Positions 28,833-50,736 of a stretch of 56,567 nucleotides of DNA are shown piece by piece; position 1 is the stretch's first letter, and every line of letters starts with the position of its first letter. The DNA lies in assembly GCA_023247055.1 (NCBI GenBank), contig JAHFHF010000013.1:1-56567 (forward strand), written 5' to 3'. Under the pieces are notes generated by a model, which ran no database searches, was not told the DNA's origin, and saw only the letters and a program-made list of their open reading frames with translations. This stretch comes from Candidatus Omnitrophota bacterium (GTDB lineage Bacteria > Omnitrophota > Omnitrophia > Omnitrophales > Aquincolibacteriaceae). The translations under genes were made by a program, and so were the position numbers.

Positions 28833-28848
28833 TTTCAAAGGCCTTTCA

Positions 28849-30732: not shown

Positions 30733-30740
30733 CGCGGCAG

Positions 30741-31361: not shown

Positions 31362-31389
31362 GTTCCCTCCCTAGGCTGAATAATCGATT

Positions 31390-32193
31390 CTAATTCTGTA
31401 AAAGACCTTTGAGATACGCGTCGCTGGTTTGAATAAACGGAATCGCCCCTTCCGGCTCGCCATTGATAAACTGCCGGATATAAGGATTTTTAGTATTTTG
31501 AATCTGCGGGCCCGTCCCGACTTCAAGCACCTTGCCGCGGTGCAAAACAATCATTTGGTCCGCAATCCGGAAGGCGCTTTTCATTTCGTGCGAAACCACT
31601 ACGGACGTAATTTTAAGTTTGCGGCTCAGATCCAAAATAAGCTGGTCGATCATGCTGGCTGTAATCGGGTCCAAGCCGGCGCCGGGCTCGTCATAAAAAA
31701 CAATTTTGGGATCAAGCGCGATCGCGCGCGCCAGCGCCACGCGCTTTTTCATCCCCCCCGAAATCTGATGCGGCATAAAGTTTTCAAAGCCGGTCAGTCC
31801 GACAAGTTCCAGTTTGACTTTCACGATGATCTTAATAATTTCATCCGAAAGGTCGGTGTGTTCACGAATGGGCAAAGCGACATTTTCTGCCACGGTCAGG
31901 GAGTTAAAAAGCGCCGCGCCTTGAAAGAGCATGCCGAATTTGCGTTTCACCGCATTCATGGGTCTCTCAGCCAACCCTACAATATTTTGCCCGTCGATTA
32001 AAATCTCGCCTTCATCCGGCTGATACAGGCCGATCAGGTGGCGCAGGAATGTGCTTTTGCCGCAGCCGGAGCCGCCCATGATCACCGAAATTTTTCCTTC
32101 CGGGATCTCGAGCGTAATGCCCTCCAAAACAACCCGGTTGCCAAAGCGTTTGACCAAGTTCCGCACGGAGATAATACTTTTTTCCTGCATCAT
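31390..32193 (-). CDS. mlaF: ABC transporter ATP-binding protein MlaF
   Basis: Walker A GGSGCGKST, signature ISGGMKKRVALARA and Walker B IVFYDEP. Confidence 0.85.
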   Translation of the reverse strand: MMQEKSIISVRNLVKRFGNRVVLEGITLEIPEGKISVIMGGSGCGKSTFLRHLIGLYQPDEGEILIDGQNIVGLAERPMNAVKRKFGMLFQGAALFNSLTVAENVALPIREHTDLSDEIIKIIVKVKLELVGLTGFENFMPHQISGGMKKRVALARAIALDPKIVFYDEPGAGLDPITASMIDQLILDLSRKLKITSVVVSHEMKSAFRIADQMIVLHRGKVLEVGTGPQIQNTKNPYIRQFINGEPEGAIPFIQTSDAYLKGLLQN

Positions 32194-32253
32194 CAGTCCT
32201 TCATCGTAAATCGTAGGAGGGACGGGTTCACAACCCGCCCCTACCGAATATTC

Positions 32254-33054
32254 TTAAGCCGGCAAAACGTAATACATGACGGCTGTGGAAAGGCAGTCCA
32301 TGACCAGAATCAGCACAATCGAAGTCACGACAGCCGAAGTCGTCGCGCGTCCCACCCCATCAGCGCCGCCTTCGACCGAAAGCCCCTGATGACAACTGAC
32401 CAGCGCGATCAAAACCGCAAAAAGGCCGCTTTTGATCAAGCCCGTGTAAATATCTTTGAGGACCAGCGCGTCAAAGGTTTTGGCAATGTAAAGATAGGGA
32501 TTCATGCTCAACCCGAGCGTTGAAATCAAAAAACCACCCACCATGCCCATGACATCCGCCACGACCGTCAAACATGGGAGAATCAGCAGAAACGCCAGAA
32601 AACGGGGCAGCACAAGATACTGCACCGGATTCAGGCCCATGGTGGAAAGGGCATCGACTTCTTCCTGGACCTTCATCGTGCCGAGTTCCGCGGCCAGACG
32701 GGCGCCCACACGGCCGGAAAGCACAATGGCGGCGACGAGCGGGCCGAGTTCCCGGGTCACGGACACACTGACGAGACTACCGGTATAAAGTTCAGCGCCA
32801 AACTGTTTCAACTGATAGGAAGCCTGAAGCGCCAGCACCATTCCGACGGACGCGCCGACCAGACAGATAATGGCGAAAGAATCTACGCCCATCAGCACGA
32901 CCTGATGGAAGAGATGGCGCAGTTGAATGGTTTTTTTTTGGAAAGGGGCCCTAAAAAGAAGACCGAAAACCTCAAAGAGAAGGCCGCTCAAGCGCCCCAT
33001 GCCGGCCATCATAAAGCCGGATGTTTCCCCGATTTTTCCGAAAAAATCACGCAT
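32254..33054 (-). CDS. mlaE: ABC transporter permease MlaE
   Basis: 266-aa polytopic membrane protein with MlaE/TTG2B-like blocks (GPLVAAIVLSGRVGA, LVLPR). Confidence 0.8.
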   Translation of the reverse strand: MRDFFGKIGETSGFMMAGMGRLSGLLFEVFGLLFRAPFQKKTIQLRHLFHQVVLMGVDSFAIICLVGASVGMVLALQASYQLKQFGAELYTGSLVSVSVTRELGPLVAAIVLSGRVGARLAAELGTMKVQEEVDALSTMGLNPVQYLVLPRFLAFLLILPCLTVVADVMGMVGGFLISTLGLSMNPYLYIAKTFDALVLKDIYTGLIKSGLFAVLIALVSCHQGLSVEGGADGVGRATTSAVVTSIVLILVMDCLSTAVMYYVLPA

Positions 33055-33055
33055 G

Positions 33056-33102
33056 GGCGCCTTTGCTAGCGCCTGCGCAGGTTTCCTTGGCCTGCGAAGC
33101 GC
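33056..33102. repeat. REP-like GC-rich hairpin pair (inverted copy of the 51394 motif)
   Basis: The reverse complement of 33065-33102 is GCGCTTCGCAGGCCAAGGAAACCTGCGCAGGCGCTAGC, about 33/38 identical to 51394-51431. Hairpins: GGCGC/GCGCC and CGCAGG/CCTGCG. Confidence 0.7.
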
Positions 33103-33135
33103 TGTGTTTAAGTAAGACTTAAAACCGGGACAGTT

Positions 33136-33474
33136 TTAACTCGCTGCTAATTCCAGCGCTTCGGCTTCAGTGGCGGCGAGAGTAAAAACCTTGTCCAGCT
33201 TGGCAATTTCAAAAACGCTGCGTACCGACGGCATGAGTTCGGTCAGCACCAGCTTGCCGCTGGAACGCTTAGCCTTTTGCAGAGCCTCCACAAACGTGGC
33301 CAGCCCCGAACTGTCGATGTAGTTGACTTTTTTAAGGTTGATAATGACTTTGTGGGATGATTTTTCCGTCACAGGCTGCAGTTTGCTGCGCAGGTCCGGA
33401 GACGTGTGAAAGTCGAGTTCGCCGGCCAACTCGAAAACATGCACATCGCCGGCCTGCCGCTGTTGAATTTTCAT
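33136..33474 (-). CDS. STAS-domain anti-sigma-factor antagonist (phosphorylatable; possible MlaB analogue)
   Basis: SpoIIAA/RsbV-like, with an intact NYIDSSGLATFVEAL motif. Overlaps the kinase gene by 4 nt and lies directly upstream of mlaE. Confidence 0.8.
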   Translation of the reverse strand: MKIQQRQAGDVHVFELAGELDFHTSPDLRSKLQPVTEKSSHKVIINLKKVNYIDSSGLATFVEALQKAKRSSGKLVLTELMPSVRSVFEIAKLDKVFTLAATEAEALELAAS

Positions 33475-33938
33475 AAAGGACCTCTTTTATCTTTGTATTT
33501 TTTTAAATGAAGAAGATTGCCGCTGCGAAACGATTCATCGTAAGTAACTTCGTCCATGAGTTTGCGCGTCAGAAAAATTCCAAGCCCCCCCGGATTTTCA
33601 GGCGGCAATTTTGGCGCGGGCTGGTTCAGCGGATTAAATTTAGCGCTGTAATCTTTGATTGAAATCTTAAGGCTTCCGTCTGAAAAACGGGCATCCAATT
33701 CAATTTTTCCGGGCCCGCCGCGGTAACCGTGCCGGATAATATTGGTCAAGCGTTCATCCACGGCCAAAACCACTTCGCCGGAACTTTTTTCGTCGAAACC
33801 AGCTTGCGCCAAAAATGCCCGCAGGTCCTCGCGAAAACCCGCCAGCCGGGCGGTGGCGGCATCGAGCGCAAATTGTTTATGAAGAAGACACATGCCTGTT
33901 TGAAGCGCCATTGTAGCCTGCGCCGCGGCGCTTGCCAA
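33471..33938 (-). CDS. RsbW/SpoIIAB-like anti-sigma serine kinase (HATPase_c)
   Basis: ERLTNIIRHGY (N-box) and PGGLGIFLTRKLMDEV (G2 box). Confidence 0.75.
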   Translation of the reverse strand: MASAAAQATMALQTGMCLLHKQFALDAATARLAGFREDLRAFLAQAGFDEKSSGEVVLAVDERLTNIIRHGYRGGPGKIELDARFSDGSLKISIKDYSAKFNPLNQPAPKLPPENPGGLGIFLTRKLMDEVTYDESFRSGNLLHLKKYKDKRGPL

Positions 33939-33962
33939 TGACTTCTGTAGGAACTGTCCCTG

Positions 33963-34592
33963 TTAAAACCCCTGGCGCTGCAAAAGTGCGATCCTGCGTT
34001 TCAAAGTCTTGGCTGTTTCGCGGGGAGCGGCCGCGGATAGCCGTTCCGTCTCAAGGTTGATTTGATCGCCGGGCTGCAGCGAACCGAGCTGCGTAATTTT
34101 GAGCGTATGCGGCACAAGCGCGACCTTGATCCCTGCGGCAGAAAGCCCTTGCACCGTCAAACTGACGCCATTGACCGTCACGGATCCTTTCAGCCGGCAG
34201 GCGCGCCGCAGGGCCAGAGGCACCTTAAGCCAAAGAATCCGCCCGTTGCCTTCCATGCTCGAGCGTAGGACTGTAGCGCGCCCTTCCACATGGCCGGACA
34301 CAAAATGTCCTCCCAGCCGCGCCCCCAGCTTCAAGGCGCGTTCCAGATGAACAGGGCGGCCTTCTTGAAAGCGGCCCAAAGTCGTGGTCTTTAATGTTTC
34401 AGGAACGACATCCGCTTCAAAGCCATGCGCGGAAATTTTTGCGGCCGTCAAGCAGACGCCGTCGACCGCAATGCTTTCGCCTTGTTTCAAGTGCCGGCCG
34501 CGCTGTTTGAAATGGATAGTCAGCCGCAAACCATTTGTTTTTTTGCGGACCGAAACCACAGTACCGCGTTCTTGAATGAGTCCGGTAAACAT
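33963..34592 (-). CDS. ribE: Riboflavin synthase alpha chain
   Basis: MFTGLIQERGTV start and a duplicated lumazine-binding repeat (VNGVSLTV). Confidence 0.9.
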   Translation of the reverse strand: MFTGLIQERGTVVSVRKKTNGLRLTIHFKQRGRHLKQGESIAVDGVCLTAAKISAHGFEADVVPETLKTTTLGRFQEGRPVHLERALKLGARLGGHFVSGHVEGRATVLRSSMEGNGRILWLKVPLALRRACRLKGSVTVNGVSLTVQGLSAAGIKVALVPHTLKITQLGSLQPGDQINLETERLSAAAPRETAKTLKRRIALLQRQGF

Positions 34593-35674
34593 TAGAAGCG
34601 TCCTTCCAAAATCATGTCGCTGCCGCAGGGAAAAACGGACCAGCTTTTAAGCTGCAGCGCTTGAGACGGCAAGGCGACGCCCTCTCCTTCAACCGATGTT
34701 TTGGCCGTGCGTCCGCCGAAAAATTTAGGCGCCGTGATCCAGATCACACGGTCAACCAGCCCGCCGGCTAAAAAGGACCAGGCGGTTTCACCGCCGCCTT
34801 CGACCAATAGTTTGGCTGCGCCGAGCGCACCCAGTTTTTGAAGCAGGCGTTTCAAATCAAGCCGTCCTTTGCGGCTGGAAACGGGCAGCAAGGTCACAGG
34901 TTTTGGCCAGGGCCTGCGGGCGGCATGGGCAAGTTTTTTTTCATCCAGGGCCAGCATCACGGTCTGAGGGCCGCGGAAAATTTTAGCCCGGGCGTTCATT
35001 TCAGCGCGAGGGTCCAGCACCACGCGCCAGGGTTTTTCAGCTTTAAGCGAACGCACCGTCAAACGCGGATTATCCCACAGAAGCGTGTTTGTGCCGACGA
35101 GCACGGCATCCTGACTGCGCCGCAAGTCTTGCACAAAGGCCCGCGATTCGGCCGATGAAATCCAGCGTGAGCGGCGCGTACGCGTGGCGATCTTGCCATC
35201 CAGCGTCTGGGCCATTTTCAAAGTCACAAAGGGCAGGCCGGTTTTGATCCATTTGAAAAAAGCTTCGTTTTGTTTTTCAGCTTCGCGCGCCAAAGGACCG
35301 GTGCGCACCTGGATGCCCGCTTTTTGAAGCAGGGCCGTAGCCCGGCCCGCATGCTGAGGATTGGGATCGCAGATGGCAAAGATCACTTCCTGCACGCCGC
35401 TGCGGATAATCGCATCCACGCAAGGCGGAGTTTTGCCCCACGACGAACAGGGTTCGAGCGTCACATAAAGGGCCGCACGCCGCGCACGCGGGCCGGCCTC
35501 ACGCAGCGCTTCGATTTCCGCATGGGGGCCTCCGAAACGGCGGTGCCAGCCTTTTCCCGCTAATTTTCCGCCGCGGACAACACAAGCGCCGACTATGGGG
35601 TTGGGACTGGTTTCAAAACGGCCTTGAGGCGCCAGGTCCAGCGCCACGCGCATCCATTTTTCATCAGAATTCAT
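34592..35674 (-). CDS. ribD: Bifunctional diaminohydroxyphosphoribosylaminopyrimidine deaminase / 5-amino-6-(5-phosphoribosylamino)uracil reductase
   Basis: HAEIEAL and PCSSWGKTPPC zinc-deaminase motifs plus the reductase half. Confidence 0.9.
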   Translation of the reverse strand: MNSDEKWMRVALDLAPQGRFETSPNPIVGACVVRGGKLAGKGWHRRFGGPHAEIEALREAGPRARRAALYVTLEPCSSWGKTPPCVDAIIRSGVQEVIFAICDPNPQHAGRATALLQKAGIQVRTGPLAREAEKQNEAFFKWIKTGLPFVTLKMAQTLDGKIATRTRRSRWISSAESRAFVQDLRRSQDAVLVGTNTLLWDNPRLTVRSLKAEKPWRVVLDPRAEMNARAKIFRGPQTVMLALDEKKLAHAARRPWPKPVTLLPVSSRKGRLDLKRLLQKLGALGAAKLLVEGGGETAWSFLAGGLVDRVIWITAPKFFGGRTAKTSVEGEGVALPSQALQLKSWSVFPCGSDMILEGRF

Positions 35675-36878: not shown

Positions 36879-38072
36879 TTAAAAGAGTAAATCATGGCCG
36901 AGTTTGTCTTTCTTGGCCTTGAGGTATTTGGCGTTGTAAATGTGGGGCGCGGACTGGATCGCAACGCGATCCACCACTTCGAGGCCGTAACCTTCGAGCC
37001 CCACGATCTTGCGCGGATTGTTGGTCATGATGCGGAGTTTAGCCAGCCCGAGGTCTTTTAAAATCTGAGCGCCTGTGCCATATTCACGCAGATCGGGTTT
37101 GAAGCCCAATTCCTCATTGGCCTGGACAGTATCCATGCCTTTTTCCTGCAGCGCATAAGCCTTGATTTTATTGGCCAGCCCGATGCCCCGGCCTTCCTGC
37201 CGCATATACAGCAGCACGCCGCTGCCGGCGCTGTCCATAGCCTCCATCGAAGCCATCAGCTGATCCTGGCAGTCGCAGCGCAGGGAGCCCAGCACATCCC
37301 CGGTGAAACATTCCGAATGAACACGCACCAGCGTGGGAGCCTCTGAAATTTGACCTTTTACAAGCGCCACATGCTCGCGTCCATCCACCAGCGAACGGTA
37401 AACATGCAGGGTCCATTCGCCGAACACGGTCGGAATTTTGGCCGTACTCATGCGTTCAATCAGCTTGTCAAACTGGCGCCGGTATTCAATCAAATCGCGG
37501 ATCGTCCCGATTTTCAAAGTATGTTTGAGGGCAAATTCTTTGAGGTCCGGCATGCGGGCCATAGAACCATCTTCGTTGACGATTTCACAAATCACTCCGG
37601 CGGGTTCAAGCCCAGCCAGGCGAGCAAGGTCAATGGCGGCTTCGGTGTGTCCGGCACGCACCAGCACGCCGCCCTTTTTGGCTTTCAGCGGGAAAATATG
37701 TCCGGGAGAAACAAAGTCCGCAGCGCCGGCGCCATTATCCGCCAGCAACTCGATGGTACGGGCGCGGTCATGCGCGGAAATACCGGTCGAAATGCCAAGC
37801 CGTGCATCCACCGAAAGCGTGAATGCAGTTTTCATAGAATCCTGCAAATGCGTGGTCATGGGTTTGAGACCCAAAGTTTCGACGCGCTCTTCGGTAAGCG
37901 GCGTGCAGATCAGGCCGCGGCCGTATTTCATCATGAAGTTGATTTTGTCCGGGGTCGCGTGAGCCGCGGCCAGAATTAAATCGCCTTCGTTTTCACGCGA
38001 CTCATCATCGGCCATAATAATCATCCGGCCTTCTTGGAGATCCTGCAAGATTTCGGGAATGGTATTGAGCAT
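36879..38072 (-). CDS. ribBA: Bifunctional 3,4-dihydroxy-2-butanone-4-phosphate synthase / GTP cyclohydrolase II
   Basis: ORF trimmed to MLNTIPEILQDLQEGRMIIMADDESRENEGDL, preceded by an AAAGGGG Shine-Dalgarno sequence. The cyclohydrolase II half has CFTGDVLGSLRCDC. Confidence 0.9.
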   Translation of the reverse strand: MLNTIPEILQDLQEGRMIIMADDESRENEGDLILAAAHATPDKINFMMKYGRGLICTPLTEERVETLGLKPMTTHLQDSMKTAFTLSVDARLGISTGISAHDRARTIELLADNGAGAADFVSPGHIFPLKAKKGGVLVRAGHTEAAIDLARLAGLEPAGVICEIVNEDGSMARMPDLKEFALKHTLKIGTIRDLIEYRRQFDKLIERMSTAKIPTVFGEWTLHVYRSLVDGREHVALVKGQISEAPTLVRVHSECFTGDVLGSLRCDCQDQLMASMEAMDSAGSGVLLYMRQEGRGIGLANKIKAYALQEKGMDTVQANEELGFKPDLREYGTGAQILKDLGLAKLRIMTNNPRKIVGLEGYGLEVVDRVAIQSAPHIYNAKYLKAKKDKLGHDLLF

Positions 38073-38208
38073 CGTAACCCCTTTATTGGCAAGAAAATAG
38101 AAACTTAGGGTATCATCAAATTTCAAGCTTGTCAATCAAAGCCCGGGACCTTTAAATCTCATAACTCTTTTGTTTTAAATAAGTTATGACAAATAAGCCC
38201 CCCTAAGT

Positions 38209-38236
38209 TTGACGCTCAACCAAACTGTGTTATCTT
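38209..38236 (+). promoter_or_regulatory. Candidate promoter for the riboswitch-controlled transcript (TTGACG-16 nt-TGtTATCTT)
   Basis: -35 at 38209-38214 and extended -10 at 38228-38236, about 35 nt upstream of aptamer 1. Confidence 0.45.
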
Positions 38237-38269
38237 TAACTTAAGACGTCATCGGACGCCTTGAGCATT

Positions 38270-38425
38270 TGAAAACGGCAAACCCGTCCGCCCAAAGACC
38301 GGCGGATCCGCCTCCAAATTGGGGGCGGAGAGTAATCCGGGGACGCAAAGCCAACAGGCCCTTTTTTAGGCTAGGCACAAGACCGCTGTGCAATAGCCTC
38401 ATCAAGGGTGGCTGGGTTGCCAAAT
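38270..38425 (+). promoter_or_regulatory. c-di-GMP-I (GEMM-I) riboswitch aptamer 1 (with an insertion in the first hairpin)
   Basis: GGCAAACC (38277-38284), GGACGCAAAGCC (38341-38352) and CAAGGGTGGCTGGGTTGCC (38403-38421). These are the conserved GEMM-I blocks, in the correct order. Confidence 0.7.
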
Positions 38426-38456
38426 CACAGTGTGGTGGACTTTTTCAAGGTTTACT

Positions 38457-38572
38457 GAAAAAGGCAAACCCGAAGTAATTCGGGGACGCAAAGCCGACGG
38501 GCCCTTTTCCGGGCTGTTACCCAACAAAGTTGGGGAATGGCCGCTTGGAACAAGGGTGGCTGGGTTGCCATA
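38457..38572 (+). promoter_or_regulatory. c-di-GMP-I (GEMM-I) riboswitch aptamer 2
   Basis: GGCAAACC (38463-38470), GNRA hairpin CCGAA-GUAA-UUCGG (38470-38483), GGACGCAAAGCC (38484-38495), P2-like stem CCGACGG/CCGCUUGG, and CAAGGGTGGCTGGGTTGCC (38551-38569). Confidence 0.8.
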
Positions 38573-38627
38573 AACCACAGAGGATTTGGCCGAATTTTAA
38601 CGCCTTCAAGGAGAGGCGCAATTCGGC

Positions 38628-39158
38628 ATGAAAAAGTTCACGCGCAATTTCTTTATTTCATTCGCCCTTTTGTTCATCGTCATGGCCCTTCCCTTGCGGG
38701 CGCAGGCTTCGCTAGCCGGCCTTCCTTCGTTTCAGCATCTCACGGCGGATCTTTCTTCACCCGATGCCATTGCCAAATTCATTTGGCGCCATTTTCAAGT
38801 CGAATCGGACCAAACGCAGTTCGGCACGGAAGACCGCTGGCAGTCACCCGAGGAATTACTCCAATCGGGCCGCGGAGATTGCGAAGATTTTGCCCTGTTC
38901 GCTTATGAGATTTTAAAGGCGCGCGGCACGCAGGCTTTTCTGCTCAATATTTACGGCCAAGGTTACGGCCATACGGTCTGTATTTTCCGGGAAGGTAAAA
39001 CTTATCAGGCAGTGGATGGAACACGGGTGGTGCGCGGCGGGAATTCGCTGGAACGCGTTATCGCCAAAATCTATCCGTTCTGGAAATCAGCGGCCATTGT
39101 CAAAGCCGTCAAAGGTTCCGGCCGCGGCATCGTCCTCAAAAAAATCACCCGTAAATAA
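38628..39158 (+). CDS. Secreted transglutaminase-like cysteine protease (BTLCP / LapG family, Peptidase C93)
   Basis: Signal peptide (ALPLRAQA). WQSPEELLQSGRGDCEDFALFAYEIL (Cys85), GYGHTVC (His115) and QAVDG (Asp130), with BTLCP-like spacing. Confidence 0.75.
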   Translation: MKKFTRNFFISFALLFIVMALPLRAQASLAGLPSFQHLTADLSSPDAIAKFIWRHFQVESDQTQFGTEDRWQSPEELLQSGRGDCEDFALFAYEILKARGTQAFLLNIYGQGYGHTVCIFREGKTYQAVDGTRVVRGGNSLERVIAKIYPFWKSAAIVKAVKGSGRGIVLKKITRK

Positions 39159-39264
39159 CTATTCCGTTCAACAAATTTGCATCTCGTTCTGGGATTCTTC
39201 GCGGAATTCACGTTGACCGGTTCCGCACCGAATGACAAACACCCAAGAATTTTCAAACAATTGT

Positions 39265-40674
39265 TTAGCCCGCTGACTTTGCAAAAAGCCGCTTCAGGAC
39301 CGTTGTTACGGTTTTAAGGACAATCGCCAAATCCAGGTTAAAACTCAGATGCTCGACGTAATAAAGATCGTAATCCATGTTCTCATGAATCAGAAGCCTT
39401 TTGCGGTCTTCGCTGACCTGCCAAAGGCCGGTAATCCCCGGCTTTAACTGCAGCCGTTCTTTTTCAAGGCTGCCATATTTTTCGACAATGAAAGGCATTT
39501 CCGGACGCGGCCCGATCAAACTCATTTCTCCGCGCAGAATGTTAAGGAGCTGCGGAATTTCATCCAGACCTGACTTTCTTAAAAAAGCGGCAAAGCGGCC
39601 GATCGGCATCGTTTCTTTTTTCAAGCTGATTTCCGGGGAAATCGCATCGGCCAACCCGGCTTTGAGCGTGCGGAATTTATAAACCCTAAATGGCTTCCCG
39701 CCCTGCCCCACCCGGATTTGCCGGAAAAGAACCGGCCCTCCGGAAGTCAGCACAATACCTAAAGCAATTAAACCATACACGGGGGCAAGCAGGACCGCCA
39801 AAATCAAGGCCGTTAAAAAATCCAGAATCCGTTTTACAAAAAAATACGCTTTCAGCCGGACTTCTTTGCGCAGGCCTACCAGCGGAATTCCGCCGATACT
39901 GTAAAAACTGATCCGTTCAATGTGCGGGTGAAAAACAGCCGGAATGGCCCAGCAGGTGATTTCCATTTCCTGACAGATCTGGAAAAAATCATAGATATCC
40001 ACGTCCTCAAATTTCCGGTTTGTAATAAAAAGGACCTGGATATTTTCGCGTTCCACCGTGGCCCTTAAATTTTCAAACCCTCCCAGAATCGCCAGCGACG
40101 CCGGCTGACGCACCAGCCTTTCGGTATGATCATCGAGAAAACCCACGACTTTAATCCCGAGTTTCGGCGATTGCTCAATCCAGCGCGCGAGCCGCTGGCC
40201 ATGATAACCTGCGCCATAGATCAGCGCCCGTTGGCCGAAAAGCCCCCTCGCATGCAGCCATGCATAAACCCGCCGCATCCCATGACGCTCAAGGCTGATC
40301 AGCAGAATGGAAATAAAGACCGAATAGAATGTGGCCAAGCGCGAAAAGTCGCTGCCGCGGTAAAAAAAAGAAACCACAAACGCGGCAGCATAAAGTAGCC
40401 AAAGGGCTTTAAAAATAAGGCTTTGCTCCGCGACACCCATGACCCCCATCTGGTGTTTATACAGGCCGACCCCATGAAAAACTAAAAGCCCCAAAGGCGG
40501 AACAATCCCCAAGATGACCGAGTAATTCGCAAAGGGCTGGTAATGACCATGCCAGGGATAAGTGATCCACAGCCAGTAGCCGAGCAGAAGTGCGGCGTTA
40601 AGGCAGCAAAAATCAAGCGCGGCGGTCACGGCCACTAAAAGAGGTCCGCCCCGTTGGACGGGCTTATTTTTCAT
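39265..40674 (-). CDS. Exopolysaccharide priming polyprenyl glycosylphosphotransferase (WbaP/EpsB-like)
   Basis: TM helices, a central Rossmann-like region, and a C-terminal Bac_transf domain (KFRTLK, GLDEIPQLLNILRGEMSLIGPRPE). Start trimmed to the ATG that forms an ATGA overlap with the upstream stop. Confidence 0.85.
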   Translation of the reverse strand: MKNKPVQRGGPLLVAVTAALDFCCLNAALLLGYWLWITYPWHGHYQPFANYSVILGIVPPLGLLVFHGVGLYKHQMGVMGVAEQSLIFKALWLLYAAAFVVSFFYRGSDFSRLATFYSVFISILLISLERHGMRRVYAWLHARGLFGQRALIYGAGYHGQRLARWIEQSPKLGIKVVGFLDDHTERLVRQPASLAILGGFENLRATVERENIQVLFITNRKFEDVDIYDFFQICQEMEITCWAIPAVFHPHIERISFYSIGGIPLVGLRKEVRLKAYFFVKRILDFLTALILAVLLAPVYGLIALGIVLTSGGPVLFRQIRVGQGGKPFRVYKFRTLKAGLADAISPEISLKKETMPIGRFAAFLRKSGLDEIPQLLNILRGEMSLIGPRPEMPFIVEKYGSLEKERLQLKPGITGLWQVSEDRKRLLIHENMDYDLYYVEHLSFNLDLAIVLKTVTTVLKRLFAKSAG

Positions 40675-41444
40675 TTGTTTTTTCCCTTGAAGACACGGTA
40701 AAAAAAATAGGGGTTTCCCAGAATATACCGGCCGAAAAGCCGCAGCGGGTCTTGAAAAAAGCGAAAGAGCCATTCCATCTGCAAACGGATCATCCACTCC
40801 GGGGCTTTCGCCAGCCGGCCGGAGGCATAATCAAAAGCCGCGCCGCCTTTTAAAAAAACATGGGCCCGCACCCGCTGCCAATTTTCTGCAATCCATTTTT
40901 CCTGGGCCGGCATGCCGAAACACGTCAGCAGGATATCCGGCCGGGCCTGATTGATCTGCGAAACCACGGCTTCATTTTCAGCACCGGCTTTCTGGAAATG
41001 CCCGTGGTGGATGCCCGCGATTTGCAGCGCCGGATAACGTTTTTTTAAATTTTCTGCCGCTTCGGCCGCAATGCCCGGCTGGGCGCCCAGAAAAAAAAGA
41101 CTAAATCCGTTTTGCACACAAAATTCCGCCAGCGGCCAAAGCCACTGATTATAAGTGATTTTAGGCGGCGGTGAATAGCCCCGCAATTTGAGCGCCCAGC
41201 GCACGCCGTCGCCGTCGCAAAAGACAAGCTGGGCCTGTTTAATGAATTCATAGAGCCAGGCATGCTTCAAAGCCAGATTGATGCAATGAACGTTTAAATT
41301 GAGCGCAATGGCTTTTTCGCCGCGCGTGATGACCTGCCGGATAAATGCGTGGACTTCCGTCAGGCCCGCGCGGTTCATCGGAAGCCCGAGAAGTTCCATG
41401 TCGGGAGTGGTTTTTGCAGCCGGCGCGTAAGAGGGATCCGTCAT
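40671..41444 (-). CDS. WecB/TagA/CpsF-family (GT26) glycosyltransferase
   Basis: VHCINLA...VFCDGDGVRWA...FFLGAQPG...ILLTCFGMPAQEKW is the family pattern. Confidence 0.75.
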   Translation of the reverse strand: MTDPSYAPAAKTTPDMELLGLPMNRAGLTEVHAFIRQVITRGEKAIALNLNVHCINLALKHAWLYEFIKQAQLVFCDGDGVRWALKLRGYSPPPKITYNQWLWPLAEFCVQNGFSLFFLGAQPGIAAEAAENLKKRYPALQIAGIHHGHFQKAGAENEAVVSQINQARPDILLTCFGMPAQEKWIAENWQRVRAHVFLKGGAAFDYASGRLAKAPEWMIRLQMEWLFRFFQDPLRLFGRYILGNPYFFYRVFKGKNK

Positions 41445-42136
41445 GGTTTAAAGCCTTCCACGATCATAAAGGATTTCACCAGGCCCAGCAACCGTTCCTC
41501 CCGGATAAATGCTCCGGGAAATAAGAGCTTCAGTTCCTTGCGGGTCAAGAGCCGCACGGAACGCGCTTCGCGCAGGGCCTCCTCGCGGTCTGGAATTTTT
41601 TTGCGCCACCCGAGGTCAAAATGCTGAATCAGAAAAGCCCGGCAGCCCGCCGGCAAAAACTGAAAAAAAGGAAATACGAAGTGCGGTTCCACGGGGAAAA
41701 ACCGGTTCGGGGTCTGGACAAATAAATTCTTTCCCACCCGCCTTAATTCATCGGCCATTCGCTTTTGGTCCTTAAAATCGCCCACGTGCTCGATCACCGA
41801 ATTCGAGAAAACGACGTCGAAACTTTTGTCCGCAAAACGCCCTAGGTCCCGGACATCCCCGGTCTGGCAGGAAAGGTTTTCAGCATCAGCGGCGGCGGGC
41901 TCGAGATTAAGCAGTGTGATCCTGTAATCCGGGTTTCCGGCCAAGCCCATCCGGATCCAGTAACCTTCCGTTCCCCCGGCATCTAAAAGGGTGACGGGTC
42001 TTGGAAATGAATTCAGAAGCGAACGAAAAAACTCCATCCGGCCCCGGCGGAACGACGCGGCCCAGGAATCTTTCCGGTGATGGTCATAAAGCCAGCGCAT
42101 GGTCTTGCTCCTGCTTCGTGTTTTTTTGCAGCACAT
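41441..42136 (-). CDS. Class I SAM-dependent methyltransferase
   Basis: LLDAGGTEGYW (motif I) and VVFSNSVIEHV. The true start may be MRWLYD (42100). Confidence 0.7.
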   Translation of the reverse strand: MCCKKTRSRSKTMRWLYDHHRKDSWAASFRRGRMEFFRSLLNSFPRPVTLLDAGGTEGYWIRMGLAGNPDYRITLLNLEPAAADAENLSCQTGDVRDLGRFADKSFDVVFSNSVIEHVGDFKDQKRMADELRRVGKNLFVQTPNRFFPVEPHFVFPFFQFLPAGCRAFLIQHFDLGWRKKIPDREEALREARSVRLLTRKELKLLFPGAFIREERLLGLVKSFMIVEGFKP

Positions 42137-43412
42137 AAAATAATTTAATTTCTTTTCCCAGATAAAGAATTACGCCGGCGACCAGAAAGTACATAAAAGC
42201 CGTAAGCGGAATCGAATCCAAACCGCTGGTCAACAGCACCGCATCCGCGGTCAGATGACTGATTCCAAGATACCTCCACAACGTGCGGTGCTCTTCGGTC
42301 AAAAGATATTTTTTTTGTGAAAACCACGAGAAGAGCATGAAAATCTGGAACGCAAGAAATGCGCCAAGCCCCAGGATTCCGGTCACAAGCAGTATTTCCA
42401 CATAGTGCGAATGCGACCCGACGATCATGGTCGAAAACTCATCCCTCGGCCGGGCGCCGAGCCCAAGCAGCGGGTTTTGCTCCATGACTTGTGAAAAAGC
42501 CTCTTTATAAATCCCCAGCCGGCCCCAGGTGCTGTCGGGACGGATGGAAAGCAGCCATTGAAATGCCAGATAAAGCCGGTCTACCAGCGGAAAAAAAACG
42601 CAAAAATAAAAGAAACACCAAAACGGCTTGATTCCGATCTCGATCAACTTGACGGCAAGCCAGGCTGCCAACAGCGCACACACGGCCGTCCGTGAGAGCG
42701 AAAAGAAAAAGGGAACGAGTAAAACCATAAAAATTCCGGCGCTGACCCACCGGCGGCTCTCTTTCAAGCGTTGAAACCCCATCGACAAGGGTAGAATCAT
42801 GGCCATAAAACCACCGGTGGCAATAGGCACCCCGCTGTAGACGCTGATCCGGGGCATATTGCCGATCTTCCAATCCAGCGTCACCCCCTGAATGACCCAT
42901 TGAATATAAAAAAAGGGATAATTTTTAAGCCCCGGCCACAAATGCGCCAGCAGCGGCTCCATCCGGAAGGTCCATTTCAGGACCCACCATGCGCCTAAAA
43001 AAAAGAGGGCGATGCCGGCCGTGATCAACGCTAAACGGTTCCCCGCTGCAAAAAACCTGCGGGGAAACCCGGGCGCCGCGGCATTATAGACGGTCAGCAT
43101 CAAGCAGAACCCCATGACAAACATAAGGTAATTATTCGCGGATGCAATGATTCTTTGCAGCGGATGGTTTCCGAAATTGAATAAAAGCGAGGTTAGATAA
43201 ATCACCATAAAGAAAAACAGCCCTAAAAGCGGCCGGGGAATGCTGAGCGGACTATCGGAATAGAAGCTCCAGACAAAGAGCTTGAGCAGCACCAGCAGTC
43301 CGATCACCTGATAAATCATTACGTTTAAGCCGAGCAGCCACCAAAGCGGGGTCAATCCTAGCGTCAGCAGCAGGTCGGTTTCGATTTTTGTTTCAAGAAA
43401 AGGTATTTTCAC
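42084..43412 (-). CDS. O-antigen ligase/polymerase-like (Wzy-type) membrane protein
   Basis: About 10 or more TM segments, with a central SLSRTAVCALLAAWL block typical of the Wzy_C region. Confidence 0.6.
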   Translation of the reverse strand: MKIPFLETKIETDLLLTLGLTPLWWLLGLNVMIYQVIGLLVLLKLFVWSFYSDSPLSIPRPLLGLFFFMVIYLTSLLFNFGNHPLQRIIASANNYLMFVMGFCLMLTVYNAAAPGFPRRFFAAGNRLALITAGIALFFLGAWWVLKWTFRMEPLLAHLWPGLKNYPFFYIQWVIQGVTLDWKIGNMPRISVYSGVPIATGGFMAMILPLSMGFQRLKESRRWVSAGIFMVLLVPFFFSLSRTAVCALLAAWLAVKLIEIGIKPFWCFFYFCVFFPLVDRLYLAFQWLLSIRPDSTWGRLGIYKEAFSQVMEQNPLLGLGARPRDEFSTMIVGSHSHYVEILLVTGILGLGAFLAFQIFMLFSWFSQKKYLLTEEHRTLWRYLGISHLTADAVLLTSGLDSIPLTAFMYFLVAGVILYLGKEIKLFYVLQKNTKQEQDHALAL

Positions 43413-44500
43413 TTTTCGACCCGGACGGAGATCCTAAGTTCTGTATAGAACTGCTCATACTGTTGAATCATGCCGGCAAAGGAATGCTTTTGGCCGGTCT
43501 GCCGGGCGGATGCTCCCCAGGATTTCAGTTTCTCAGGCTGATTTAAAACCTGTAAAAGCGCTTGGCCGAGATGCTGCGCCGAGCGTGGTGGAACCAGTAA
43601 CCCGTTCTCGCCGTCACGTACAATATCGCGCGTGCCTTCAATCGCGGTTGCAATCACCGGTTTACCCGCATAAAACGCCTCGATAACACTCCTCGGCATT
43701 CCCTCCCAAAGCGACGGCAGGATCAAAAAATCACAGACCTCAAGCCATTCTGGAACGGCATCCGTATATCCGGTGAAAATAAAATTGCCGCGGACTTCAA
43801 GAGTTTGCGCTTTTTTTTCCAGAGCAGCGCGCAGCTTTCCATCGCCCGCAAGGACAATCCGGAGACGCAATCGGTCTTGGGGAGGTAAACCCGCAACGGC
43901 CTCCATCAGATAAGCATGGCCTTTTTGTTCTTCAAACCGGCCGATACAAAGCCCGGTCAGCTGCCCGGGCGCGGCGGGATAATGTGTTTTCAAATCCTCC
44001 ACCTGCCGGGCGGATGCGAACCGCAGCTGAGCCGCATTGGGAATGGCCCGAACAAGGCTCTCTGGCACGCGGTAATAATCGATCAAATGGCGGCGCAGCG
44101 ACTCGGAAACCGTAGTCACTCGATGGCCATAACGGTAAAAAAAACGATGGTTTTTTTTAAGCACGCGTTCCGTATGCAGAATCCGGTTTCCCCGTTTAAA
44201 CAACAAATCCAGCAAAAACGTGGTGAACCGGTGATGCGAGTGGATGATATCCGGAGTAAAGTCCCGTAATATCCGGCGCAGCTGCCGGATCAGGCCGGGA
44301 ATCTGAAACTTGGAACGCGGGATTTCAAACACCCGAATATTTTCCTGACGCAGATGCTCGGCCAGCGGGCCGGCATTCACCGCAGCCCGGATTTCATACC
44401 GGTTTGTTTTTTTCAGGGCGGATGCAAGTTCAAATACGCCTTTGGCAGCTCCTCCCAAACCTCCGTCTGGATTGTAGAGGTGGACCAATAAAATTTTCAT
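43409..44500 (-). CDS. Glycosyltransferase family 4
   Basis: GGLGGAAKGVFELA N-terminus and the EGMPRSVIEAFYAGKPVIAT EX7E motif. Confidence 0.8.
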   Translation of the reverse strand: MKILLVHLYNPDGGLGGAAKGVFELASALKKTNRYEIRAAVNAGPLAEHLRQENIRVFEIPRSKFQIPGLIRQLRRILRDFTPDIIHSHHRFTTFLLDLLFKRGNRILHTERVLKKNHRFFYRYGHRVTTVSESLRRHLIDYYRVPESLVRAIPNAAQLRFASARQVEDLKTHYPAAPGQLTGLCIGRFEEQKGHAYLMEAVAGLPPQDRLRLRIVLAGDGKLRAALEKKAQTLEVRGNFIFTGYTDAVPEWLEVCDFLILPSLWEGMPRSVIEAFYAGKPVIATAIEGTRDIVRDGENGLLVPPRSAQHLGQALLQVLNQPEKLKSWGASARQTGQKHSFAGMIQQYEQFYTELRISVRVEK

Positions 44501-45186
44501 GTCCGGCGGCCTGCTACGGCGATAATTTCAAAATGCCGCCGGATTTTCCCAAGACAGTTTAAGGCAAACCCATAGGCCGCCGGCCCGCATAAACGGTAAA
44601 GAGGCAGAAAAAATTTTCTGCCGTTCAGCGCGTTAAAACGGACACGGACGTCACCGCAGCCGGCACTTTCCATCAGGTTGCGAAGAGTTCTAAGGTTCCA
44701 GGAATAAAGATGGTGATCCGTATCATCCGCCTTAGGTTTGAGGCCCGGCGATTCTGCAGGAACCACCACGATCAGCCGGCCTTGCGGCTTTAAATACGCC
44801 TGAAGCGTTTTCAGCAACGCATACGGCTCAGGGACATGCTCCAGAACATGCCGTAAAAGGATAAAATCAAAACGTCTTTGCGGCGTGATTTCCTCAAGCG
44901 CTGCGGCCGTCTGAAAGCCTAAACTTTGGATATACTCCCGCGCCGAACGGGCCGGCTCCAGGGCCAGGACCTCCGCCTCTTTTTGAATCCCAAGCAAATT
45001 ATTCCCAAAACCTGCGCCGACTTCTAAAACCGACTGTCCGGACTGGAGGCCTTTGAAATAGACCTGCCGGGCATAGCAGCCCCAGGCTTCTCTTAAAACC
45101 GCGTCTTCCCGCATACTCCTCAAATGACGGTGGCGCTGATGATGGTAGCTGTCGCCTTCGGCCGAAGCATAATCAAGGAGAGACAT
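44497..45186 (-). CDS. Class I SAM-dependent methyltransferase
   Basis: VLEVGAGFGNN motif I and FILLRHVLEHV. Confidence 0.7.
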   Translation of the reverse strand: MSLLDYASAEGDSYHHQRHRHLRSMREDAVLREAWGCYARQVYFKGLQSGQSVLEVGAGFGNNLLGIQKEAEVLALEPARSAREYIQSLGFQTAAALEEITPQRRFDFILLRHVLEHVPEPYALLKTLQAYLKPQGRLIVVVPAESPGLKPKADDTDHHLYSWNLRTLRNLMESAGCGDVRVRFNALNGRKFFLPLYRLCGPAAYGFALNCLGKIRRHFEIIAVAGRRT

Positions 45187-50735: not shown

Positions 50736-50736
50736 G

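Follow-up and report, generated by a model that had tools for sequence, protein, structure and literature searches.

Class-I c-di-GMP riboswitches (RF01051, e.g. Vc2 of V. cholerae) pair with their ligand through the bases G20 and C92 (PMC5888326), and a G versus an A at position 20 distinguishes c-di-GMP from c-AMP-GMP (PMC9481103). Tandem arrangements of these riboswitches are already known and are common: 347 doublets and 12 triplets have been catalogued, and B. thuringiensis carries the triple tandem Bc3-5 (PMC9481103; PMC12452182). The units of the published tandems are described as complete, each with its own expression platform, usually a terminator. In Bacillota, tandem c-di-GMP-I riboswitches precede genes of COG1305 ('yebA'), which encode transglutaminase-like putative cysteine proteases (PMC12452182, table of enriched COGs).

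A second connection between c-di-GMP and a protease of this fold is provided by LapG, a c-di-GMP-controlled Cys-His-Asp protease that cleaves LapA; a Cys-His-Asp catalytic triad is characteristic of the BTLCP (Peptidase_C93) proteins (PMC3032545, the latter point citing Ginalski 2004). The control of LapG is exerted on the protein, through sequestration at LapD.

Here we analyze a locus from a bacterium of the phylum Omnitrophota, contained in a stretch of 56,567 nucleotides (the window), in which two c-di-GMP-I aptamers stand in a single leader upstream of a gene for an exported LapG/CPR-C4-like hydrolase. The gene is very probably subject to c-di-GMP-responsive cis-regulation, and we regard the explanation as a whole, a dual-aptamer leader that controls this hydrolase gene, as likely.

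The aptamer pair and its leader

A cmscan of the whole window returned exactly two Rfam matches above gathering score (GA), both to RF01051 (GA 35 bits) and both on the + strand. The parts of the leader are:

38209-38236, + strand: promoter-like site from a consensus scan, TTGACG, 16 nt, TG-n-TATCTT (extended -10)
38267-38424, + strand: c-di-GMP-I aptamer 1, RF01051 38.5 bits, E 4.9e-4, model positions 1-87, full length
38277, 38347 and 38420, + strand: putative ligand contacts of aptamer 1 in the inferred register, G20 (G38277), A47 (A38347) and C92 (C38420)
38287-38337, + strand: 51-nt insertion in P1b (the first hairpin) of aptamer 1, reported as an insert by cmscan
38425-38452, + strand: inter-aptamer linker of 28 nt, between aptamer 1 and aptamer 2
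38453-38572, + strand: c-di-GMP-I aptamer 2, RF01051 56.3 bits, E 2.2e-8, model positions 1-87, full length
38463, 38490 and 38568, + strand: putative ligand contacts of aptamer 2 in the inferred register, G20 (G38463), A47 (A38490) and C92 (C38568)
38582-38590, + strand: conserved platform strand GGAUUUGGC, immediately 5' of the SD hairpin, with a 2-nt overlap
38589-38627, + strand: SD-burying hairpin, whose last base is position -1 of the start codon
38608-38616, + strand: SD AAGGAGAGG, inside this hairpin

An earlier note on this DNA had read two tandem units of this class from the letters alone, and the Rfam scores bear this out, with aptamer 1 just above the gathering score. The identical 19-mer that it saw in both units, CAAGGGTGGCTGGGTTGCC, occurs exactly twice (at 38403 and 38551), as does GGACGCAAAGCC (at 38341 and 38484), and shuffled sequences lead one to expect no copy of either. 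The GNRA hairpin of unit 2 is likewise present (CCCGAA-GUAA-UUCGGG), its GUAA tetraloop sitting on P1b; the P2 region of both aptamers is interrupted by inserts, and in aptamer 1 the GUAA loop is retained within GAGUAAUC on the 3' side of the P1b insertion. This insertion, too, had been recognized in the earlier note, at a size of roughly 45 nt; it measures 51 nt.

Both units possess the P1a, P1b and P2 helices, a G at model position 11, the motifs GACGCAAAG and UUGCC, and the ligand-contacting residues G20, A47 and C92. In L163 and L168, by contrast, aptamer 1 bears an A at position 20. Judged by the sequence features of the window units, they are canonical class-I c-di-GMP aptamers that are predicted to bind the ligand. 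Several orthologous aptamers are labelled RF03167 ('c-di-GMP-I-GGC') by Rfam, as are those of the window in E-value mode, and a variant with an unknown ligand was therefore considered and dismissed: the RF03167 consensus has a G at position 47 (GACGCGAAG), all the sequences studied here have an A, and the window aptamers score 56.2 and 39.9 bits, under the GA of 59 of that family. We treat the label as a scoring artefact.

In its end-to-end match to the covariance model (CM), its ligand-contacting residues, its helices and the covariation in relatives, the pair resembles RF01051 members such as Vc2; it differs from them by structured extensions, absent from the earlier note, of 40-45 nt in the P2 loop of both units (45 nt in aptamer 2, -30.4 kcal/mol, z -3.0) and by the P1b insertion of unit 1. 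The latter consists of a hairpin at 38287-38306, a second one at 38307-38329 and then GAGUAAUC; a folding energy of -36.2 kcal/mol (z -3.7) was calculated for the region. Because of these large clade-specific inserts, the Rfam scores of both aptamers are lowered; with our own CM (R1), aptamer 1 reaches 52.8 bits (E 3.6e-12) and aptamer 2 reaches 74.8 bits.

The insertion raises the question of whether aptamer 2 alone is functional, aptamer 1 being a decaying duplicate inactivated by its 51-nt insert, so that the leader would effectively be a single riboswitch. The low RF01051 score of aptamer 1 would suit such a reading, as would the copy number in close relatives (one in L170, L002 and L177; two in the window, L161 and L163), a difference from which we conclude that aptamers are frequently gained and lost. 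The reading is nevertheless quite improbable. G20, A47, C92 and the P1a/P2 cores of aptamer 1 are intact, and two-hairpin inserts with different, compensating sequences are present in L163, L169, L170, L081, L083 and L090, the insert-bearing aptamer being the only one in L170, L083 and L090. The insert hairpins remain paired although their sequences differ (window, UCCGCCUCC/GGGGGCGGA; L163, UCUGCCGGC/GCCGGCAGA), and the platform strand GGAUUUGGC pairs best with the tail of aptamer 1 (-20.0 kcal/mol), not with that of aptamer 2.

Within the linker, CUUUUUCA (38440-38447) shows complementarity to UGAAAAAG (38456-38463), a stretch that contains G20 of aptamer 2; GGUUUA (38447-38452) forms the 5' side of P1 in the same aptamer. 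The CUUUUUCA/UGAAAAAG hairpin (-6.6 kcal/mol, z -2.8) is the only fold of the linker; the complementarity recurs in L161, L163, L168, L169, L001 and L081. A terminator after aptamer 1 was considered and rejected: the conserved CUUUUUCA is reminiscent of a U-tract, but in the window there is no stable stem 5' of it. No + strand terminator was found between 38000 and 39400, linker included. With a terminator-free linker and a single SD hairpin, the pair departs from the tandems of independent (pseudo-cooperative) units; like the known tandems, it has two aptamers of the same class in one leader, for which a sharper dose-response is expected (PMC9481103; PMC12452182), but here only one obvious platform follows, after aptamer 2. 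The layout is closer to that of adjacent aptamers with one platform, at a spacing above the 20-nt criterion of PMC12452182.

A site of the form TTGAC-N14-16-TGTGyTATCTT is found at the equivalent place in L161, L163, L168, L169, L170, L001 and L002. This conservation is read directly from the sequences; from it we infer a promoter function for 38209-38236, and the transcript would start near 38243.

The exported hydrolase and the neighbouring polysaccharide locus

Downstream of the aptamers lie:

38628-39158, + strand: gene for an exported transglutaminase-fold (BTLCP-like) Cys-His-Asp protein of 176 aa (assigned by Pfam, homologues and AF2)
38880-38882, + strand: Cys85 of this protein, in the motif GDCEDFA
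38970-38972, + strand: His115, in the motif GHTVC
39015-39017, + strand: Asp130, in the motif AVDG
39265-51336, - strand: convergent Wzx/Wzy-type polysaccharide (EPS) locus (Pfam), context outside the switch
53260-56565, - strand: large repeat ORF (the giant ORF), 14 kb from the protease gene, at the far end of the EPS locus

The gene at 38628-39158 is monocistronic and the only one between the aptamers and a convergent gene; its description in the earlier note as the sole downstream gene, encoding a signal-peptide protein with the three catalytic motifs, stands. The signal peptide comprises approximately residues 1-27 and ends at AQA, followed by S. The anticipated match to PF06035 was obtained at 27.0 bits (E 4.5e-6), exactly at the curated cut-off of 27, and is partial, extending over residues 46-120 (of 176) and over positions 43-116 of the 162 in the profile; most homologues bear a precomputed PF06035 hit, and the nearest ones carry Omnitrophota labels. 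Among 34 homologues, GDCED, Cys85 and His115 are invariant, while residue 130 is an Asp in 30 of them and an Asn in the other four.

The AF2 model of the protein (pLDDT 88.7) and its sequence both point to LapG (4FGO, E 5.8e-9; 4U65) and CPR-C4 as the nearest solved relatives. With LapG the protein shares a signal peptide, the GDCED motif at the catalytic Cys, the His, the Asp and the transglutaminase fold; it differs in being about 45-70 aa shorter, in Foldseek TM-scores of only ~0.5, and in that its control, if any, is exerted on the mRNA and not by sequestration at LapD. The NCBIfam LapG equivalog NF045674 scores 29.9 bits against a cut-off of 320, over residues 46-106 only. The structural similarity to CPR-C4 of the Candidate Phyla Radiation (7OB6, 7OB7, 7PJO) and to the vasohibins is comparable to or above that to LapG (TMq 0.59-0.60), at a sequence identity of 14-17%; a CPR-C4 profile match is detectable (E 5.7e-5). 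We know of no riboswitch association of CPR-C4 or the vasohibins, and their substrates, where known, are unrelated. Hence, the assignment of the protein to the LapG family, made in the earlier note, holds at the superfamily level only. The tandems upstream of COG1305 'yebA' genes in Bacillota are alike in that a doublet or triplet precedes a putative protease of transglutaminase fold; the likeness is one of shared fold. The family is PF06035-like here, and the phylum and presumably the platform type differ as well.

The EPS locus comprises genes for a priming sugar transferase, a WecG-family GT, methyltransferases, Wzy-like proteins, a GT4, a MurJ-like flippase, a Wzc-like tyrosine kinase and a Wza-like exporter. 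The earlier note was correct in placing the gene next to an EPS locus; the giant repeat ORF, which it also counted as a neighbour, is at the other end of that locus. The N-terminus of the giant ORF lies beyond the window; with its CBM-like repeats and a match to PDB 8XUJ in one domain, it looks like a carbohydrate-active protein, not an RTX adhesin. No GGDEF, EAL, LapD or T1SS was found among the Pfam-assignable ORFs of at least 150 aa in the 56-kb window; those without a Pfam hit are at 1767-4958, 24715-26883, 12598-13233, 13230-14024, 15260-15748, 28134-28883 and 52726-53193, together with the giant ORF. Nor was a T1SS or an RTX/LapA-like adhesin found in the window, or a LapD, T1SS or LapA-type adhesin in the syntenic loci of about 16-20 kb of the relatives.

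These data bear on the possibility that the protein does the work of LapG, setting free a giant surface protein, and that in this lineage direct sensing of c-di-GMP by RNA has taken the place of LapD. No PDB entry matches the sequence better than LapG, which also ranks with the top structural matches; the motif around the catalytic Cys, GDCED, is invariant and in LapG includes calcium-binding residues. Furthermore, the riboswitch is limited to the protein's own subfamily and was not found at ~140 more distant BTLCP loci, the window has no GGDEF/EAL or LapD-like ORF (an absence judged over 56 kb only), and an OFF direction of control, if right, would reproduce the logic of the Lap system. We consider this possibility unlikely: the equivalog threshold is failed widely, PF06035 is matched just at its threshold, CPR-C4 and the vasohibins match the structure about equally well, the window and the examined 20-kb syntenic loci hold no T1SS, RTX or LapA-like adhesin, the giant ORF has no adhesin features, and what is conserved beside the gene is a Wzx/Wzy polysaccharide locus. 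Most likely, the protein would be a periplasmic or surface hydrolase that acts on a matrix or envelope protein tied to the neighbouring polysaccharide system.

The pairing of aptamer(s) and protease gene is conserved. One or two GEMM-I aptamers lie upstream of nearly every orthologue fetched, down to ~35% identity, in a set made up of Omnitrophota and some Planctomycetota MAGs (Rfam aptamers at L001, L002, L004-L008, L081-L086, L088, L090, L091, L161-L163 and L074). Of 173 sources, 29 contain matches to our CM, 40 in total; apart from L074 they all belong to the close subfamily, and none lies at the ~140 distant BTLCP loci. The P1a, P1b and P2 helices covary: in 13 aptamers from orthologous leaders, a sample from which the two copies of the window were excluded, 97% of the cells are paired and 11 of 18 pairs show changes on both sides; none of 500 shuffles reaches this score, and slid controls are 25-45% paired. 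The synteny, rib operon, then leader and gene, then Wzx/Wzy EPS locus, is conserved as well, and a neighbourhood like that of the window is found in L161, L163-168 and L172-178.

The convergent arrangement could also suggest that the main output is antisense, with read-through past 39158 into the priming sugar-transferase gene modulating the EPS operon. Between 39158 and 39400 no + strand terminator was found, the two stop codons are 106 nt apart, and antisense-acting riboswitches have been described (PMC9943018). We judge this highly improbable: in many orthologous loci (L163-168 and L172-176) the transferase gene runs in the same direction as the protease gene, and conservation of the leader and of the SD hairpin is no weaker there. 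Therefore, the conserved target is the protease gene.

The expression platform and the direction of control

The SD of the protease gene is buried in a hairpin with an outer stem (GCCGAAUU/AAUUCGGC) and an inner stem (CGCCUU/GAGGCG) of -17.2 kcal/mol (z -4.2), a stability attained by none of 200 shuffles. An equivalent hairpin (-14 to -24 kcal/mol) is found in 13 of 13 relatives. The putative platform, a further difference from RF01051 members such as Vc2, is a conserved SD/AUG hairpin common to the whole orthologue set. The inner stems vary in sequence among the relatives and always consist of a CU-rich strand that pairs with the SD; when the platforms were aligned with MAFFT, RNAalifold picked up the invariant outer stem alone, as the inner stems are out of register, and each sequence was therefore folded by itself.

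The platform strand GGAUUUGGC is complementary to the 3' tails of the aptamers (GCCAAAUC in aptamer 1, GCCAUAAACC in aptamer 2), which contain the P1 3' strand and C92. Its TTTGG/CCG columns are invariant in 13 leaders. The duplex with the 3' half of aptamer 1 amounts to -20.0 kcal/mol and that with the 3' half of aptamer 2 to -15.3 kcal/mol; tail-strand duplexes of -15 to -22 kcal/mol can form in every leader. Since the strand 5' of the SD hairpin complements the aptamer tails, control is probably translational, and we place a fair measure of confidence in a mechanism that operates via this hairpin. Against it speaks that the platform strand shares no more than 2 nt with the hairpin. L004, L005, L083 and L090 keep the SD hairpin and have, in addition, strong intrinsic terminators after the aptamer; the hairpin may consequently be constitutive, the riboswitch being read out elsewhere.

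In the mechanism that we propose, a leader of 385 nt (~38243-38627) would be transcribed from the conserved extended -10 promoter and would control one gene at the level of translation initiation, since the window shows no terminator in the linker or 3' of aptamer 2. In the unliganded state, an aptamer tail would pair with the strand adjoining or inside the 5' arm of the SD hairpin, which would thereby be loosened (ON); in several relatives, the 5' flank of P1 would likewise pair with the region of this arm when no ligand is bound. c-di-GMP would lock P1, so that the tail would be withdrawn and the SD hairpin could close completely (OFF). The presence of two aptamers would sharpen the response.

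Energetically, the two states are balanced in the single-aptamer leader of L002, where a fold with the flank on the anti-SD, the tail on GAUUUGGC and the SD free (-70.8 kcal/mol) is iso-energetic with one that combines P1 and the SD hairpin (-70.6 kcal/mol). For the window leader, equilibrium folding predicts no switch: the SD hairpin is closed in the unconstrained MFE structure, and its opening costs 11.6 kcal/mol. The unpaired probabilities of the SD and the AUG in 'free' and 'aptamer-locked' models of 13 leaders show no consistent change. An assignment of the direction from thermodynamics was thus abandoned: none of the measures used (MFE structures, forced-open folds, energies of the two states, ensemble accessibilities) differed consistently. 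We also discarded the idea that P1b of aptamer 2 (CCGAAGUAAUUCGG) exchanges strands with the SD outer stem (GCCGAAUU/AAUUCGGC); the similarity is missing in L161 and L001, and we regard it as a coincidence.

As to the direction, we lean slightly towards repression by c-di-GMP. The opposite sign, by which c-di-GMP would switch the gene on and the hydrolase, made alongside the matrix polysaccharide, would have a role in maturation or anchoring instead of release, is rather unlikely, and several observations speak for it all the same. EPS production is usually stimulated by c-di-GMP, and the protease gene is always the first to border the EPS locus. The SD is closed by default, which would make an activating signal sensible, GEMM-I ON switches exist (Vc1 and Bc2, for example), and the equilibrium modelling does not discriminate between ON and OFF. 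However, the aptamers and the SD hairpin have no nucleotides in common, and all aptamer-complementary strands are situated in the 5' arm of the hairpin or beside it, as they would be in an OFF switch whose anti-sequestor is made of aptamer strands; an element through which a ligand-locked aptamer would open the hairpin was not found in the leader. An argument for ON from co-transcription with the priming transferase is weakened as well: co-transcription with the EPS genes is not the rule, as the transferase has its own promoter-like TGCTATAAT and a terminator follows the protease gene in L163.

A direction other than OFF or ON has, in our view, a low probability. The most far-reaching form of the repression model has a low probability, too: a dual-aptamer, single-platform RNA substitute for LapD, employed by Omnitrophota and a number of Planctomycetota. 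The two P1 strands (5' flank and 3' tail) would be anti-sequestors of one conserved SD hairpin, and high c-di-GMP would repress a LapG-related, exported and matrix-releasing protease.

A probable new target of c-di-GMP riboswitches

The finding leaves our knowledge of riboswitch classes and of the Lap system as it was. It adds a new conserved target of c-di-GMP riboswitches, the gene of a small exported LapG/CPR-C4-like cysteine hydrolase, in Omnitrophota, an uncultured phylum about whose second-messenger signalling and matrix biology almost nothing is known. The approximately 25 orthologous leaders all have the same SD hairpin but differ in aptamer number (one or two) and in the presence of terminators; they offer a ready-made set in which the gain and loss of tandem aptamers, and their coupling to a single platform, can be followed. 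The strict linkage of aptamer(s), protease and polysaccharide genes leads us to the hypothesis that the hydrolase may carry out a c-di-GMP-controlled step in the remodelling of the matrix or the cell envelope of these bacteria.

Two c-di-GMP-I aptamers and their conservation

A scan of the whole 56.6-kb window with Rfam 15 returned exactly two matches at or above the gathering score, both to the c-di-GMP-I (GEMM-I) family RF01051 (gathering score 35), on the + strand and covering model positions 1-87. This bears out the earlier note, which had described two GEMM-I units in series upstream of the gene.

Features of the leader and of the gene that follows it
38209-38236, + strand: promoter-like site TTGACG-16-TG-n-TATCTT, conserved in relatives
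38267-38424, + strand: aptamer 1, RF01051, 38.5 bits, E 4.9e-4
38453-38572, + strand: aptamer 2, RF01051, 56.3 bits, E 2.2e-8
38589-38627, + strand: Shine-Dalgarno (SD) hairpin, the last 39 nt before the AUG; -17.2 kcal/mol, z -4.2, none of 200 shuffles as stable
38628-39158, + strand: protease-like gene, 176 aa, the next ORF after the aptamers; beyond it lies only a convergent gene

The motifs noticed earlier were found in both units: the identical 19-mer CAAGGGTGGCTGGGTTGCC occurs twice in the window (38403 and 38551), as does GGACGCAAAGCC (38341 and 38484), each with a shuffled expectation of 0. Unit 2 carries the hairpin CCCGAA-GUAA-UUCGGG, as had been reported; the equivalent P1b hairpin of unit 1 is indeed interrupted by an insert, which measures 51 nt rather than about 45, and the inserts of 40-45 nt in the P2 loops of both units had been left out of that account. 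The predicted fold of the 51-nt insert is a pair of hairpins (-36.2 kcal/mol, z -3.7). Two-hairpin inserts that differ in sequence and keep their complementarity are also present in L163, L169, L170, L081, L083 and L090 (L numbers denote fetched loci encoding homologues of the protease-like gene), and the inserted form is the sole aptamer of L170, L083 and L090. Aptamer 1 is therefore unlikely to be a decayed copy.

The ligand-contacting nucleotides point to c-di-GMP. Both units have an unpaired G ahead of the GC pair of P1a (G38277, G38463), and the junction GACGCAAAG together with the 3' end UUGCC reproduces the G20/A47/C92 constellation in each. The two guanines of c-di-GMP pair with G20 and C92 (PMC5888326), and an A at the first of these positions marks c-AMP-GMP-selective variants (PMC9481103). 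A different identity is suggested by Rfam itself, which labels several orthologous aptamers above its gathering score as RF03167, 'c-di-GMP-I-GGC' (L001:5602-5822, L002:1707-1804, L004:5685-5770, L005:5666-5745, L082:5721-5812, L084, L085, L091); the window (38268-38573) receives this label in E-value mode only, below that family's threshold. At position 47, which defines the variant, the consensus of RF03167 is G (GACGCGAAG), whereas every window and orthologous aptamer compared has A. Consequently, we discount the label, which we put down to the close similarity of the two models, and take these aptamers to be predicted canonical c-di-GMP sensors. Automatic annotation will mislabel canonical aptamers of this clade as the unknown-ligand variant.

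In L163 (3664-3802) and L168 (312-396) the first aptamer of the tandem has A at G20 (UAGCAAACC and AAGCAAACC), the c-AMP-GMP-selective GEMM-I signature, and the second keeps G. Judged from these bases, the two leaders may be two-ligand tandems. Omnitrophota are not known to use cGAMP.

The aptamer structure appears to be under selection. In a clean alignment of the P1a, P1b and P2 pairs of 13 aptamers from orthologous leaders, standard pairs occupy 97% of cells, 11 of the 18 pairs show both-sided changes, and not one of 500 column shuffles attained the covariation score of the real alignment; when the 3' partners are shifted by 1-3 columns, pairing falls to 25-45%. Furthermore, Rfam places GEMM-I aptamers directly upstream of the orthologue in L001, L002, L004-L008, L081-L086, L088, L090, L091 and L161-L163; in L074, a Kuenenia MAG, they precede a more distant homologue. 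A clade covariance model built on 13 of these aptamers and run over 173 sources (1.44 Mb) gave 40 matches in 29 sources, all belonging to the close subfamily or L074: two aptamers in 11, one in 15, and three cut by contig ends. It found none at about 140 loci of more distant BTLCP proteins (Proteobacteria, Acidobacteriota, others), and inside the subfamily the sole members without one are L089 and L003, the latter a paralogue from the MAG that also contains L001. The model was trained on this clade, yet it encodes the universal GEMM-I core, and an independent motif screen agrees with its distribution. The nearest protein homologues are labelled Omnitrophota (Omnitrophica), some of them Planctomycetia or Verrucomicrobiae; on these labels the source of the window is probably Omnitrophota.

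The predicted hydrolase and its genomic neighborhood

The 176-aa product begins with a typical signal peptide (MKKFTRNFFISFALLFIVMALPLRAQA|S). Its match to Pfam PF06035 (Peptidase_C93), which the earlier note had predicted, lies exactly at the cut-off (27.0 bits versus 27); PF01841 and PF04473 fall slightly under theirs, and the NCBIfam LapG equivalog scores 29.9 bits against a cut-off of 320. Profile searches of the PDB recover LapG (4FGO, E 5.8e-9; 4U65, E 2.1e-7) and CPR-C4 (7OB6, E 5.7e-5). Among 34 homologues (36-77% identity, all about 170-230 aa), GDCED (Cys85), His115 and Trp71-Gln72 are invariant, and at position 130 Asp is present in 30 and Asn in four. The AlphaFold2 model (pLDDT 88.7, pTM 0.78) resembles LapG, CPR-C4, a Cytophaga putative cysteine protease and vasohibins, with TM-scores of 0.45-0.60. 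We conclude that the product is a predicted exported transglutaminase-fold Cys-His-Asp hydrolase of the LapG/CPR-C4 neighborhood, though no LapG orthologue.

The gene is flanked by a divergent ribBA-ribH-nusB-ribD-ribE block and, as had been noted, by a polysaccharide locus. This convergent Wzx/Wzy-type locus encodes a priming sugar transferase, a WecG-family transferase, methyltransferases, Wzy-like proteins, a GT4, a MurJ-like flippase, a Wzc-like kinase, a Wza-like exporter and an EpsL-like porin. The order of rib block, gene and polysaccharide locus is kept in all longer orthologous contigs examined (L161, L163-168, L172-178). Where the priming transferase and the protease-like gene are co-oriented, as in some orthologous loci, a TGCTATAAT promoter-like site lies between them, and the gap in L163 also holds a clear terminator, which suggests that the protease-like gene is usually its own transcription unit.

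The giant repeat protein proposed as substrate or matrix partner corresponds to a large ORF (53260-56565, - strand; more than 1100 aa, N-terminus beyond the window end) that heads the polysaccharide locus with a 155-aa unknown ORF and the EpsL-like porin. No Pfam or NCBIfam family matched it. Its repeated modules of about 150 aa are β-sandwich-like (…NYTLDLSGENIPSGFLTNAL…VVIETRGLDF…), and a central region of about 400 aa (aa 380-776) matches the 'membrane protein' PDB 8XUJ (E 1.5e-23); from these features it looks carbohydrate-active rather than adhesin-like. The reported absence of LapD holds for those window ORFs of 150 aa or more with a Pfam assignment, none of which is a GGDEF, EAL, LapD-type or T1SS protein; several others of this length gave no Pfam family.

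Other features of the surroundings deserve mention. An FMN riboswitch (117.5 bits) precedes the divergent ribBA operon at L082:5374-5531 (- strand), in a region whose counterpart in the window is 38074-38266; none was detected anywhere in the window despite its rib operon. Upstream of the rib genes (28849-35674, - strand) lie genes for a CHASE2-SpoIIE phosphatase and a MlaD/ABC/MlaE-like transporter, a conserved partner-switching module adjoining the aptamer-protease locus, to which relatives add a STAS protein and an anti-sigma kinase (syntenic in L161, L172 and L174). Three further - strand ORFs are a 1063-aa protein with no Pfam family (1767-4958), a 722-aa protein with no Pfam family and only weak SMC-like coiled-coil matches in NCBIfam (24715-26883), and a ParA/MinD-type ATPase fused to a C-terminal CBM48/AMPK glycogen-binding module (14021-15127), an uncommon pairing of domains.

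Leader elements between aptamers and start codon

Most of the SD (AAGGAGAGG) is sequestered in the SD hairpin, which extends to position -1. An equivalent is present in 13 of 13 orthologous leaders tested (-14 to -24 kcal/mol); it has a constant outer stem, GCCGAAU/AUUCGGC, and variable inner stems (CGCCUU/GAGGCG, CUCCUUUU/AAAAGGAG, CCUCGU/ACGAGG, CUCAA/UUGAG and others), in which a CU-rich strand pairs with the SD in every case. Immediately before the hairpin, and sharing 2 nt with it, comes a conserved (G)AUUUGGCC, complementary to the 3' tail of the aptamer, GCCAAAUC, in which the 3' strand of P1 and C92 lie. This duplex amounts to -15 to -22 kcal/mol in every leader; of the two window tails, that of aptamer 1 pairs better with the platform strand than that of aptamer 2 (-20.0 versus -15.3 kcal/mol). 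In L002, L082, L001, L081, L177 and L161, the P1 5' flank GAGGAUUCUG also shows 8-10 bp of complementarity to the anti-SD arm. In the single-aptamer leader L002, the fold with flank:anti-SD plus tail:GAUUUGGC and a free SD is iso-energetic with P1 plus SD hairpin (-70.8 versus -70.6 kcal/mol). Within the inter-aptamer linker, CUUUUUCA can pair with UGAAAAAG of aptamer 2, which includes G20, in seven of eight tandem leaders.

There is no + strand terminator-like site in 38000-39400. The sole terminator-like site of the region in a consensus scan (38469-38484, - strand) consists of the aptamer 2 P1b hairpin in reverse complement and then the complement of the A-rich junction; it was rejected as a rib-operon terminator, being an aptamer artefact.

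Other leaders are built differently. In more distant, mostly Planctomycetia-labelled orthologues (L004:5770-5860, L005:5745-5830, L083:728-790, L090:3597-3670), the single aptamer is followed first by a strong intrinsic terminator and then by the same SD hairpin, so that the aptamer family mixes transcriptional and apparently translational read-outs. A third subclade (L006:5696-5890, L008:2004-2190, L091:5804-5947) has CCGGA…UCCGG around the SD/AUG instead of the SD hairpin; this element is preceded by a strand (GCGGUUUGCC or CAGUUUGCC) exactly complementary to the aptamer 5' core GGCAAACUG(C), with a co-varying extension, and MFE folds contain this long-range anti-aptamer helix.

Proposed regulation of the gene and its relation to the Lap system

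The c-di-GMP-I class controls a very wide range of genes and occurs in tandem more often than any other riboswitch class; 347 doublets and 12 triplets are on record (PMC9481103). In Bacillota, tandem c-di-GMP-I riboswitches precede genes for transglutaminase-like putative cysteine proteases of COG1305 (PMC12452182). There is thus precedent for both the tandem architecture and the general target type. Full-text literature searches (riboswitch with LapG; Omnitrophota with c-di-GMP) yielded no description of the aptamer/protease association. Nor did we find described the pairing of c-di-GMP-I aptamers with this PF06035-like subfamily in Omnitrophota and Planctomycetota, a strict linkage of such an aptamer-gene pair to polysaccharide genes, an SD hairpin shared among leaders together with its complementary strand, the P1b and P2 inserts, or a tandem in which both aptamers apparently have one platform.

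In the periplasm, the Cys-His-Asp protease LapG cleaves LapA, and c-di-GMP-bound LapD keeps it inactive (PMC3032545). The window protein is at most a distant cousin in working: of the features that define LapG, its score in the equivalog model falls short, and no LapD/T1SS/adhesin partnership was found in the window. The earlier note is right on the riboswitches, and on the protease at the superfamily level only.

In the mechanism that we propose, binding of c-di-GMP would lock P1 and thereby withdraw flank and tail, upon which the SD hairpin would close; the leader would then switch translation OFF, and the second aptamer would make the switch sharper. Against it stand equilibrium models in which the window SD hairpin is always closed (opening costs 11.6 kcal/mol), ensemble accessibilities without a consistent difference between states, and the pairing of the same hairpin with strong terminators in L004, L005, L083 and L090. 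Weighing the leader evidence against these equilibrium folds and terminators, we favor a translational mechanism through the SD hairpin with some reserve, and lean slightly towards OFF as the direction of regulation; an ON switch appears rather unlikely, and any other outcome a little more so.

The observation of tandem riboswitches before a protease-like gene is correct and is strengthened by the comparative evidence; its interpretation as a rewired Lap system is speculative. That an RNA has taken the place of LapD here, in the form of an OFF switch with two aptamers and one platform, strikes us as improbable; that c-di-GMP regulates the protease-like gene in cis is, in our view, very probable.
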